This document shows positions 24,829 through 33,563 of a DNA stretch of 64,000 nucleotides, piece after piece. The stretch is from the NCBI GenBank assembly GCA_033763695.1, contig JANRKB010000031.1:81-64080 (forward strand), written 5' to 3'. The notes beneath the pieces were generated by a model. It was not told the origin of the DNA and made no database searches. It was given only the letters and a program-made list of their open reading frames with translations. Origin of the DNA: Planctomycetota bacterium. GTDB lineage: Bacteria; Planctomycetota; Phycisphaerae; Phycisphaerales; UBA1924. Within the stretch, counting starts at the first letter, position 1. Every line of letters begins with the position of its first letter. The position numbers and the translations under genes are program-made.

Positions 24829-27198
24829 TCAGCATCCCGTCTCGAACGCCGCGACGAAGGCGTCGAAGTCCTCGAACGTCAGGAAGCCGTCGTTGTCGAA
24901 GTCGGCGGTTGCCGCGCCGCCCTCGAAGGCGGTGACAAACGCATCAAAGTCGTTGAAGGTCAGGAAGCCGTCGGCATCGAAATCGGCGCGGCACGGGGGC
25001 GTGGACAGCCCGTTGAGGTACGCCGCCAGCGTGCTGTCCATCTCGTTCATGTTGATCGTGCTCTCGGGGCTTTGTCCCGAGGCATAACCGCTGGACGTGC
25101 GGAAGTTGTAGTTCAGCCGACTCCAATCCTCGCTGCCTTGGAGCACATCGCCCGGCGATGGTGGATCAACGCCGTACAAGAAGTTGATGTCCGCCGCGAC
25201 GAGCGGATTGTCGATCGTGCCGTTGCGATTCCAGTCGACGCCGCCGACTTCGAACGCTTCCTTGACAGGCAGCGGGCCAACGAGGGTCACGGCGTTGAGC
25301 ATGCCGCCGATCCCGAGCACCTCATCAAGCGCGTTCTCGTTGAGCGCGGGCAGCGGCTCACGCGAATAGTCAAGCGTCCAGCCCAGACGGTTCGCGGCCA
25401 GTTGCCATGTGTAGTTCATCACGCTGTGGTAATTGGGCTTGTAGTTGTACCGCCGATCGTTGTTCCAATCGACTTGATGCCCGCCGTGGTACAGCCCCAG
25501 CGTGTGCCCCAGTTCGTGCATGAACGTCGCGGCTTGTTCGTCGGCGGTTCCGCCCGGCTGATCAAACGCGCCCAGCGTCACCATGAAGTCGTTGCCGGGA
25601 AGCTCTCCCAGCCCGGAAGATCCGGAGCCCGCGTAGGTATTGCCGAAGATGCAGTAGCGGAACACGCGGCGTTTCGCATCGAGAATCGCCTGCTTGTTCG
25701 GGCTTGCGCGATCGGCGGCGTTGCCGAAGCGCTGTGCCTTGAGCGGGTGAAAATCCCACCAGTCATTCGGGAAGTCCTGGAGCGGAATCGACTGATCCGC
25801 TGCGTCGACGATCAATCGCAGGTCGATGCCATCCACGCCGTTCGGGTTCGTGACCGGTGCGAGCGCGAACGCGCCCACCACGCGATTCAGCGTGCTGGCT
25901 AGCGGCGCACGCCCGAGCATCGAATCGACCTCGATGAAGATGTCCTTGCGCAGTTTGTTCGCGCCCAGCGCAGACAGATTCAGATCGATGGTGCCATTGC
26001 AGTCGCCGTCGACGCCGTTCTCTTCCCAGGTGTCGGGCAAGCCGTCGCCGTCGGTATCGAGCGTTGACGCGGTGCTGGGCCCCCAGCGAATCAGGCCGCT
26101 GCCGTTTTGCGTGACGGTGTTGGTCCGCAGTCCGCTGCCGCCGACGAAGACGCCCATGCCAAAGCCGGGGTCGAAGGCCGCGAGCACGCCGGGCGTGCCA
26201 AAGAGCGTGGGAAGAAACGTGAGCGTGCTTCCGTCAGATCGCACCAGCGCGCCGTTCGCGAGCGAGAGGAAGAGCTTTTCTCCGGTGCCATCATCCGCGA
26301 CGCAGAGCGAGGTCACGGTCGAACTCGCGCCGGCGCCGACGGCGGCGTAGTTTGTGCCGTCGAATCGCGCGATGCGATTGAGCGTGATCGTGCCGTCGCG
26401 CGTCGCGGTGAAGTCGCCCGCGAGGTACAACTGATCCTTGAAGACGACCAAGTCGCGGACGCTGCCGTTCACGCCGCCGCTGGGCATCGCAAGCCACTGC
26501 GTGCCGTCGTAGATGCAGATGCCGGTGGACTGGGCGGTGTTCTGGTTGAACGCGGTGCCGCGCGCGATGGAGCCGAAGTCGCCCGCGACGTACAAGCGTC
26601 CCTTGTACTCCTGGACGGCACGGATGACTTGAAAGACGTTGGTGAACTCGACGTTGGGTCCCCATTGGGTCGATGCCGCTCGCCACGACGAGCCGTCCCA
26701 GATCGCATGCCGCGCTGACACGATGCCGGGAAAGACGAAGCTTCCTTCCGCGATGATGCCCGTGCTCGGCGCGGCGTGCATGCTGCGCACGGTGATGTTG
26801 TTGTTGCCGAGTGTCCCCGTGCCCGGCCATGATGCCCACGAGTTGCCGGTCCACAACTGACCCGCGGAACCAACGGGTCCGCCTTGGGCGTAGAGCGTGT
26901 CTTGATAGACCGCGAGCAGACCGCCAGCCCCGATCCTGCCCGCCGTCATCGATGTGAATGCAGATCCATCAAATGCGGACAACCCGTTGCTCTCCGTGCC
27001 GCCGATCGATGTGTAGCCGCCACTGACGACAAGCCGCCCGTTGTACACGGCCATGCTCTGCACGCCGGCGTTGAGAGGCTCCATCGGCGTCGGGGGCGAC
27101 CACGCTGGACATTGCGCTCGCGCGTCGGCCGCAGGCGACAAAGCGGCGATCAGCACCAGCGCACCGGCGCAGCGCGACATCATCCACGTGCAGTTCAT
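24829..27198 (-). CDS. secreted multi-domain metzincin zinc metalloprotease with N-terminal beta-propeller-like repeats and C-terminal dockerin-like module ending Gly-Cys
   Basis: Signal peptide MMSRCAGALVLIAALSPAADA with GAGGG 4 nt upstream of the ATG. FMHELGHTLGLYHGG is the HExxHxxGxxH motif, and SVMNY is the Met-turn. There is an Asp-rich DTDGDGLPDTWEENGVDGDCNGTID stretch. Tandem DFDADGFLTFNDFDAFVTAFE and DFDNDGFLTFEDFDAFVAAFETGC* at the C-terminus. Confidence 0.8.
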   Translation of the reverse strand: MNCTWMMSRCAGALVLIAALSPAADARAQCPAWSPPTPMEPLNAGVQSMAVYNGRLVVSGGYTSIGGTESNGLSAFDGSAFTSMTAGRIGAGGLLAVYQDTLYAQGGPVGSAGQLWTGNSWASWPGTGTLGNNNITVRSMHAAPSTGIIAEGSFVFPGIVSARHAIWDGSSWRAASTQWGPNVEFTNVFQVIRAVQEYKGRLYVAGDFGSIARGTAFNQNTAQSTGICIYDGTQWLAMPSGGVNGSVRDLVVFKDQLYLAGDFTATRDGTITLNRIARFDGTNYAAVGAGASSTVTSLCVADDGTGEKLFLSLANGALVRSDGSTLTFLPTLFGTPGVLAAFDPGFGMGVFVGGSGLRTNTVTQNGSGLIRWGPSTASTLDTDGDGLPDTWEENGVDGDCNGTIDLNLSALGANKLRKDIFIEVDSMLGRAPLASTLNRVVGAFALAPVTNPNGVDGIDLRLIVDAADQSIPLQDFPNDWWDFHPLKAQRFGNAADRASPNKQAILDAKRRVFRYCIFGNTYAGSGSSGLGELPGNDFMVTLGAFDQPGGTADEQAATFMHELGHTLGLYHGGHQVDWNNDRRYNYKPNYHSVMNYTWQLAANRLGWTLDYSREPLPALNENALDEVLGIGGMLNAVTLVGPLPVKEAFEVGGVDWNRNGTIDNPLVAADINFLYGVDPPSPGDVLQGSEDWSRLNYNFRTSSGYASGQSPESTINMNEMDSTLAAYLNGLSTPPCRADFDADGFLTFNDFDAFVTAFEGGAATADFDNDGFLTFEDFDAFVAAFETGC

Positions 27199-27446
27199 GG
27201 CACCCTCACAATCCCAAGCAGCACAGCGTTTTTGGTTACGACGCGTTTCCAGACTAGCAGAGCCGGGGGGAGGAGCAAGACAAATCGGGCAAAGGATGCT
27301 CCACGTCGCGAGCAAGCCCATGGAAACCATGTGGACCGCGGCGCACGAAAGACCCCGCGTCAGAGTGACGCTGGGTTGGAGCTGGAAGTCTCGTGTCTGC
27401 CCCGGGCCTAGTGCCTCGTGCCTAGCCCCGAGTGCCTCTTTCTTCT

Positions 27447-33300: not shown

Positions 33301-33563
33301 AACGAGCCGCTGGGCTCGCTGCCGTCGGTGGTGTAGTAGACGCACACGCGATCGTAAGTGAACTGGAACGAGACGCGGAAGTAGAGATCGACGGTCTCGC
33401 CATCGCGCGGCATGTCGGGCTCGCGCTGGGTGATGCCGCTGGGCTGGCTGAAGGTCTGGTTGGCGGGCGTGTGCTCCACGCTGCTGGGCTGAGCGGCGGC
33501 CACCCCGGCAAACGCGACGAGAGCGGCGGCAGACAACGACAAACGCTTGTCAAACATGAACAT
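30363..33563 (-). CDS. secreted glycoside hydrolase family 15 (glucoamylase/glucodextranase-like) with N-terminal beta-sandwich region and C-terminal dockerin-like module ending Gly-Cys
   Basis: Signal peptide MFMFDKRLSLSAAALVAFAGVAAAQ. GH15-type motifs GAYPYVWPRDAVYAAVTL and GGPWFLSTLWYGLHYA. C-terminus is CPPDFNNDGFLDFTDFDAFVAAFEAG..DYNGDGFLDFTDFDAFVAAFETGC*. Confidence 0.75.
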   Translation of the reverse strand: MFMFDKRLSLSAAALVAFAGVAAAQPSSVEHTPANQTFSQPSGITQREPDMPRDGETVDLYFRVSFQFTYDRVCVYYTTDGSEPSGSFGTGAGTTQVLRNDLGSVSFLVNENSGGTRDWWKATLPAATRAYAKNIKYKISAWKPFVGGEVFANGGASYTYTNKLAWPGAGAGNPSPAIGYPGVNFWKEEAIFGNTYTAGMIDRNGTVYDMHFPTPGGVYGVGTRNEGYVDGVDTFPAGLPLGWRGQMHLNQAMPGIRVDGTTHWLSNPSGVSYDNVTQAYEPNSNTVITSQRLYAGGNNIAVTQYDFSPIGVSWPTDGGGNPQRHIYLKRLVLTNNGASSKDVDVYWYIDPAINGGDGYDAMFVDSSKAAMVAYDNTYRVVTGTGTGFSSPNEYNPTTSSGYEKNKSLYLASAMKVLTNSGSIASTATDFWRDTSGDNGQGWMGTRVTLPVGQPVEVDFIMAGAVDNFAGASGTYNFQLQNVMQWFYNNNITGLMNQTDNYWQAWLNNGTTVDTPDNDYDALMKRGLLATALHVDGVNGGVIAGFHNGAYPYVWPRDAVYAAVTLARTGHLSEAEGVYSWMKNTTYRDFEGWGRKGFWKQKYSTDGYVIWGAPQIDETAVFPWGVWYQYQMTADSGLLSNYIEQVRDSVEAMTRTSTVDPSRLQFTPFNLMYSNNVWEDSYDTFIYSNANVWRGLEDARKIFDAIGSPAEAFNAFNKRNLIKNGLDARLDWNGENTDISQLGITYPFEVYSPLDARVNKVVDRINGVATDTFGNNHPLINFSGEHKDTVNRYWGDNYWNGGPWFLSTLWYGLHYATRADYTSGKGDIDNHKSRVDLMIDRLGPAGMGAEQIAYSNSYLYPGQSDFKLQTAWPNAWESMSTFVDSVMAFLDYQPDAPSNTMRFKPKLPTAWNSMQFNNVVLKVAPANYFHQIDVLVEENAAAQRYTHTFTMRSEDPLNIETVVRVPAGSTVYSVTRNGTPVLYTYNSAIGAVTAGVPANVGLGAQTIVEVRLGCPPDFNNDGFLDFTDFDAFVAAFEAGDAAADYNGDGFLDFTDFDAFVAAFETGC

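Follow-up and report, generated by a model that had tools for sequence, protein, structure and literature searches.

GC-type dockerin modules with a probable disulfide clasp end four secreted proteins of a Phycisphaerales planctomycete

Why do four secreted proteins with unrelated domains, encoded within one stretch of a planctomycete genome, end in the same short module and the same two residues, Gly-Cys? The stretch analysed here (the window) comprises 64,000 nucleotides of contig JANRKB010000031.1 from a Planctomycetota bacterium of the order Phycisphaerales. The four proteins, P1, P2, P3, and P4, would be a Sec-exported metzincin protease, an immunoglobulin (Ig)-repeat protein, a GH15 glycosidase, and a tandem glycan binder resembling carbohydrate-binding modules (CBMs), respectively, each with a GC-type dockerin end. 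A preliminary description of this DNA had noted their common calcium-loop module and had suggested a surface-docked enzyme system. We consider it reasonably probable, although far from certain, that the module, a type modeled by the curated family NF041540, is a dockerin that is folded by Ca2+, clasped by a disulfide bond, and used to dock secreted proteins to a shared partner.

Family membership and predicted fold

A loose F-hand pattern was searched in the six frames of the window. Only seven matches were obtained, and all of them lie in frame at the C-termini of P1–P4, where they form three tandem pairs (P1, P2, and P3) and one single copy (P4). The existence of a common module in four proteins is thereby borne out. 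The modules with two F-hands are encoded on the (−) strand at 24832–24993 (P1, Cys736 to Cys789), 27450–27614 (P2, Cys862 to Cys916), and 30366–30527 (P3, Cys1013 to Cys1066), and the single F-hand of P4 is encoded at 53058–53138 (−) (Cys401 to Cys427). The module is built from a C-x-x-D element, a 12-residue Ca-loop, and a Phe-rich helix, and it closes with Gly-Cys and the stop codon; all four open reading frames (ORFs) end in FE[TA]GC. The seven loops all conform to D-x-[ND]-x-D-G-x-x-[DT]-x-x-D, in which position 12 is occupied by Asp and not by Glu. The pattern given in the preliminary description was correct in its overall form. However, it allowed C-x(2,3)-D, whereas the spacing is constantly C-x-x-D, and it allowed only Phe or Ile at loop position 2, which is Tyr in repeat P3b.

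P1, P2, and P3 match the NCBIfam model NF041540 (dockerin_GC) from end to end with 33.0, 36.2, and 38.8 bits, respectively (curated cutoff, 29). P4 falls below the cutoff, with 16.5 bits for the whole protein and 21.5 bits for the isolated module. In the GenBank record (locus tag SFY96), P1 is already named "GC-type dockerin domain-anchored protein", while P2 is an "immunoglobulin domain-containing protein" and P4 is a "hypothetical protein". NCBI applies the same family name to orthologs of P3 and to the tandem-module orthologs of P4 (P0317 and P0330). Because of the NF041540 match and the name of P1, the feature is a curated and named family. The module of P1–P3 is a known member of it, and the novelty implied by the preliminary description was a misreading. 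NF041540 is a broad model that also scores other terminal-Cys subtypes on orthologs. The family name is used by no paper in the library that was searched. All four proteins stop at Gly-Cys, and no hydrophobic segment, transmembrane helix, or basic tail follows the module; it is therefore not a PEP-CTERM or LPXTG signal, as had been stated, nor a GlyGly-CTERM signal.

The loops had been read as a dockerin/EF-hand signature, to be checked by profile searches and structure prediction. The profile scores, taken alone, weigh against a dockerin assignment. The Dockerin_1 profile (PF00404) found no match in the full P1–P4 proteins at E ≤ 0.1, and the isolated modules remained under its gathering cutoff of 22.9 bits (16.7 for P3, 15.2 for P2, and no match for P1), whereas the EF-hand_1 profile was passed by the isolated modules of P1 (32.2 bits) and P3 (29.4 bits). 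There was no significant sequence match to solved dockerins, and the best profile matches in the Protein Data Bank (PDB) were weak EF-hand loops.

The orthologs and the predicted structure point the other way. P3 orthologs across Phycisphaerae carry other tandem-module subtypes at the same position, and three such tails scanned alone scored 29–34 bits on PF00404. When nine tails of this PF00404-scoring subtype were aligned and compared with the window module by hhalign, the two corresponded over their whole length (probability 96.8%, E 2e-10). An AlphaFold2 (AF2) model of the P3 module (a 60-residue construct; predicted local distance difference test (pLDDT) score 90.3, predicted template modeling (pTM) score 0.76) shows the loop-helix unit twice, with helices at residues 19–30 and 46–58 and no entering helix. 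A Foldseek search with this model gave dockerins as the best matches, with a template modeling (TM) score of about 0.55, against about 0.3 for calmodulin. The predicted structure thus has the dockerin fold, namely a pair of F-hand Ca-loops with a helix after each, and the module may be described as a duplicated F-hand with two calcium loops of the form D-x-N-x-D-G-x-x-D-x-x-D. The module shares the Ca-loop consensus with EF-hand pairs (PF00036; calmodulin, polcalcin, and EhCBP1). However, it is not an EF-hand despite its profile score, since the entering helix is missing, all seven loops have Asp at position 12, and calmodulin is a poor structural match. The module is placed with the dockerins because of the form of its F-hand loops, its fold, and its alignment to ortholog tails that score on PF00404. 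At the level of Pfam, its assignment as a dockerin appears borderline.

Like the type I clostridial dockerins (PF00404; 2vn5_B, 2ccl_B, and 4dh2_D), the GC-type module is a duplicated F-hand with Asp at position 12 and is located at the C-terminus of secreted enzymes. It differs from them in its Phe/Asp-rich helix (DFDAFVAAFE) and its sub-threshold PF00404 scores. The hosts are also different: the GC-type modules occur in a Gram-negative planctomycete, and their cargo consists mostly of proteases, nucleases, and binders rather than cellulases.

Distribution of the family and its terminal cysteines

An exhaustive HMMER search with a profile of the module, performed against 1.84 billion representatives of clusters at 50% identity, detected 12,963 proteins at E ≤ 1e-3, of which 2,169 were also matched at E ≤ 1e-10. 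The aligned region reaches the last residue of the protein in nearly every top match. On contigs from one genome per species, 97 confirmed matches were traced to 79 loci, nearly all of which belong to metagenome-assembled genomes (MAGs) of Phycisphaerales or Phycisphaeraceae, with many from the same genome. These loci, 1.2 Mb in total, contain 110 distinct module-bearing ORFs, and 105 of them end in Gly-Cys and a stop codon. One MAG has at least 58 distinct module copies, and head-to-tail arrays of four to six module genes are found in other genomes. The family occurs chiefly in Phycisphaerales, where a genome contains dozens of copies.

The cargo is diverse. It includes peptidases (S8, M10, M1, and M12B), other enzymes (endonuclease I, glucose/sorbosone dehydrogenase (GSDH), beta-lactamase-fold proteins, and peptidyl-arginine deiminase), and binding or structural domains (BNR/sortilin, Ig, PKD, cadherin-like, PA14, and beta-propellers). 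Four small secreted metagenome proteins (P0036, P0038, P0039, and P0044) consist of dockerin domains only. They have a signal peptide followed either by a GC-type dockerin and Cys-rich dockerin-like repeats or by two complete C...GC modules in tandem.

An "intramolecular clasp" is a feature of all intact dockerins: residues −3 to −1 before loop 1 contact residues near the C-terminus (Slutzki et al., PMC3821032). In the GC-type module, the N-terminal Cys is located at −2 before loop 1, inside this clasp window, and the second Cys is the last residue. In clostridia the two ends are held together by a non-covalent clasp, and in the GC type they would be joined by what appears to be a disulfide. 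A disulfide between the C-terminal Cys and Cys(−2) would be a covalent version of the canonical clasp that joins the N- and C-terminal ends.

Both Cys residues are present in approximately 85% of the 110 Phycisphaerales module ORFs, and the C...GC bracket also surrounds internal copies in multi-module proteins. The terminal Cys occurs alone in 11 modules, and the N-terminal Cys occurs alone in 3–4. The more frequent retention of the terminal Cys would suit a C-terminal sorting or anchoring signal, whose last residue is covalently joined by a dedicated machine to an envelope component through a thioester, a lipid, or an intermolecular disulfide. The strictly C-terminal site, the near-invariance of the last residue in most members, and the word "anchored" in the NCBI family name are also in favor of such a signal. 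The preliminary description had likewise offered covalent thioester or lipid attachment beside a disulfide-stapled module. We regard an anchoring signal as unlikely on the evidence of the P3 (GH15) orthologs, in which the fate of the second Cys can be followed.

In 88 of 120 such orthologs, one of the last three residues is a Cys. In 41 of the 88, it is the only Cys in the module, and all 41 contain a compensating Cys located approximately 96–115 residues from the C-terminus (mostly 96–104). The compensating site is on a strand of the preceding beta-sandwich (alignment columns 1471/1477 in P3 orthologs P0182–P0300), and a Cys at this site is found in only 8% of the GH15 orthologs with the paired type of module and in 3% of those without a terminal Cys. 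The number of Cys residues from this strand to the C-terminus is even in 84 of the 88. The same compensation is observed for modules without the N-terminal Cys on unrelated cargo, for example with a Cys at −32 in a fibronectin type III (FN3)-like domain. Parity was counted in the C-terminal region of the orthologs; the parity of whole proteins is uninformative because the Cys residues of the cargo make the counts of P1, P3, and P4 odd. The counts of Cys covariation ignore phylogeny, and this weakens the case for a disulfide to some extent.

An intramolecular partner is therefore always available to the terminal Cys. Moreover, the Cys is penultimate, followed by Pro, Val, Leu, Gln, or Ala, in 44 of the 120 orthologs, and thus a free Cys carboxylate is not required. 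These two observations disfavor the thioester or lipid attachment that had been raised as an option, and the bracketing of internal modules and the lack of a transmembrane helix or basic tail also argue against a sorting signal. The covariation and parity favor the other option, a disulfide-stapled module, and we infer with considerable confidence from the sequences that the terminal Cys is disulfide-bonded, usually to the Cys at −2. In relatives without the Cys at −2, the terminal Cys would pair with a Cys of the preceding cargo domain. The lone-Cys GH15 orthologs appear to have shifted the partner from the N-terminus of the dockerin to the strand of the beta-sandwich, which would pin the dockerin onto its cargo domain.

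Loop residues and the proposed docking partner

Residues 7–11 of the loops are uniform across unrelated cargo within a genome and differ between genomes: FL[DT]F[TEN] in the window, FVTG[DE] in two MAGs, and FVD[TIL][DE] in several others. Cargo orthologs have the module subtype that is typical of their own genome. The identity at synonymous sites among the seven repeats of the window ranges from 0.27 to 0.89; therefore, recent gene conversion cannot by itself account for the sameness of the amino acid sequences. The uniform loop residues on unrelated cargo are a cellulosome-like pattern that speaks for a common partner. At the cell surface of Phycisphaerales, the clasped, Ca2+-folded module would then attach diverse exo-enzymes and binders to one partner that they share and that is specific to the genome.

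Several observations count against this docking. The homogeneity of the loops within a genome could partly reflect a recent spread of the module rather than co-evolution with a partner. No cohesin (PF00963) or other candidate receptor is encoded among the genes of the window, and no cohesin or receptor recurs among 66 large signal-peptide-bearing neighbors of related arrays, as judged from the 25 of 186 families listed; a single weak match among the others could have escaped notice. In this respect, the GC-type module differs from the type I clostridial dockerins, and also from the non-cellulosomal dockerin-cohesin pair NagH/NagJ of Clostridium perfringens (2ozn), whose cohesin partner is known and which has no terminal Cys. 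The repeated beta domains of P4 are CBM-like and not cohesin-like. Because neither the window nor the neighbors yielded a cohesin or another partner, we only infer that the system is cellulosome-like. However, neighborhoods rather than whole genomes were sampled, and the missing cohesin is therefore weak evidence.

The module might also act without any protein partner, as a Ca2+-binding stabilizing tail or as a Ca2+-bridged tether to the acidic exopolysaccharide or envelope of its own cell. The lack of a cohesin in every context examined and the EF-hand scores of the isolated modules agree with such a role, as do the glycan-synthesis genes in the neighborhood within the window (GT4, Wzy_C, DegT, and the UDP-glucose dehydrogenase family). 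We consider this role rather improbable. The predicted fold resembles dockerins rather than EF-hand pairs, the cohesin evidence is limited by the sampling described above, and the genome-specific residues occupy the positions that recognize cohesin in type I dockerins and are uniform across cargo, as a shared protein partner predicts.

A further alternative arises from P4. EF-hand-type motifs normally work in pairs, and P4 has one F-hand yet keeps both Cys residues. Together with the small dockerin-only, multi-module secreted proteins of metagenomes, this could indicate that the modules pair dockerin with dockerin, or F-hand with F-hand, and thereby assemble exo-enzymes into homo- or hetero-oligomers, with the fold of P4 completed by dimerization. 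We consider such pairing improbable. In a comparison of 35 sequences, the module is tandem in 33, P4 is the only one with a single repeat, and P0331 has no dockerin; the FLTFEDFD subtype of P4 is shared by its closest relatives (60% identity). One repeat has therefore been lost from P4, whereas both Cys residues were retained, and the comparison indicates that its single F-hand is a derived, lineage-specific state. The AF2 confidence for the P4 module is lower (pLDDT 64–77), and the single repeat may be a decaying remnant. A single repeat can also be functional, since the single-repeat dockerins of Ruminococcus flavefaciens bind cohesins (PMC12270676). These Group-2 dockerins resemble the P4 module in having one Ca-loop and helix, although that of P4 appears to be a lineage-specific deletion.

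Returning to docking onto a shared partner, the closest precedent may be the "planctosome", a purely bioinformatic proposal (Andrei et al. 2019, PMC6461901) for freshwater Phycisphaerae (Nemodlikiaceae, CL500-3). In this proposal, M12B reprolysin-like and M14 peptidases are displayed on the surface through Ca2+-dependent cohesin-dockerin contacts. P1, which comes from a related lineage, is a metzincin that bears a dockerin. We advance only tentatively, as a possibility that may well prove wrong, the wider proposal that GC-type dockerins are the enzyme-borne half of a lineage-wide surface display of this kind in Phycisphaerales. In such a display, the receptor would be a divergent cohesin or a non-cohesin protein, loop positions 8–11 would form a genome-specific code for recognition, the disulfide clasp would lock the module mechanically, and each cell would present proteases, nucleases, glycosidases, and lectin-like binders by the dozen.

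The finding in the window is correct, but it rediscovers a family for which NCBI already has a model and a name. Nevertheless, it points to a large, putative protein-display system that is worth experimental work. The module is a marker for a very large number of secreted hydrolases and binders that experiments have not yet touched, in a planctomycete lineage that is abundant but poorly cultured. A partner, if there is one, would show how these bacteria organize the breakdown of proteins, nucleic acids, and glycans outside the cell, and it would extend cohesin-dockerin biology to Gram-negative aerobes. The proposed disulfide clasp is a simple structural variation that could help to engineer more stable dockerins.

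The four genes and their surroundings

All four genes are on the (−) strand. Their likely start positions are 27198 (P1), 30197 (P2), 33563 (P3), and 54338 (P4), and each start is preceded by a G-rich Shine-Dalgarno (SD)-like stretch and followed by a Sec-type signal peptide. The cargo assignments of the preliminary description (metzincin motif, triple repeat with Ig domains, GH15, and duplicated beta-rich halves) agree with our results.

P1 (24829–27198; 789 residues; MDX2118066.1) has a signal peptide, a beta-propeller-like region, a metzincin domain, and the tandem GC-type dockerin. The metzincin domain contains the motif HELGHTLGLYH, shows weak matches to reprolysin and M66 peptidases, and has myroilysin as its closest solved relative. 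Outside the dockerin, the mature part of P1 has an odd number of Cys residues, namely five. A cysteine switch activates myroilysin, and by analogy an unpaired Cys may play the same role in P1.

P2 (27447–30197; 916 residues; MDX2118067.1) has a signal peptide and three repeats of approximately 205 residues (mutual identity, 33–42%) interleaved with two Ig I-set domains, followed by the tandem dockerin. P3 (30363–33563; 1066 residues) is composed of a signal peptide, an N-terminal beta domain, a glucoamylase-like catalytic domain of family GH15, a beta-sandwich, and the tandem dockerin.

P4 (53055–54338; 427 residues; MDX2118080.1) has a signal peptide and two halves of approximately 190 residues each, which are 42% identical and both end in an "IDHL.F" motif, before the single-repeat dockerin. 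Neither Pfam nor the PDB gave a sequence match for these domains. They are predicted to be jelly rolls like those of CBM8, CBM29, and CBM22, and this predicted fold suggests that P4 is a non-catalytic glycan-binding component. The repeats of P2 and P4 were recovered by segment-wise comparison, because self-blastp gave only the diagonal.

P1, P2, and P3 are arranged head to tail with SD-like stretches, as had been described, but they are not one operon. Terminator-like hairpins followed by T-runs are located directly past the stop codons of P3 (30304–30333 (−); 13-bp stem) and P1 (24736–24762 (−); 12-bp stem). A P3 ortholog with 94% identity (10001–13201 of locus L080, JGI metagenome sample 3300012921) lies in an unrelated neighborhood with an adjoining DNA methylase gene, and no homolog of P1 or P2 is present near it. 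A conserved three-gene operon is thus ruled out by the hairpins and the missing synteny. The array of dockerin genes has therefore been rearranged between close relatives.

The protease, glycan, and O-antigen-ligase genes that had been reported downstream are present: they encode an S8 subtilase, a trypsin-like protease, a GT4 protein, a GH56-like protein, and Wzy_C. The GH56-like gene (38428–40119 (−)), beside the GT4 and Wzy_C genes, matches the Pfam family Glyco_hydro_56 (hyaluronidase) over approximately 290 residues (E 5e-32). GH56 is chiefly an animal and venom family; therefore, this planctomycete copy is unusual.

Elsewhere in the window, two long ORFs have a coding-like composition. 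The ORF at 9226–13956 (+) (1576 residues) has no Pfam match at E ≤ 0.05, and that at 4088–6829 (+) (913 residues) has only a sub-threshold match to TPR_6 (19.7 bits). ARAGORN reported a 93-nt "tRNA-???" with a two-base anticodon at 644–736 (+). This is probably a false positive, because Rfam found no tRNA or other family anywhere in the window. A BatA/VWA gene at 41800–44172 (+) is overlapped by an ORF at 44055–46547 (+) (830 residues) with a faint DUF7408 match, and the two look like a Bat-type (aerotolerance-like) gene pair.

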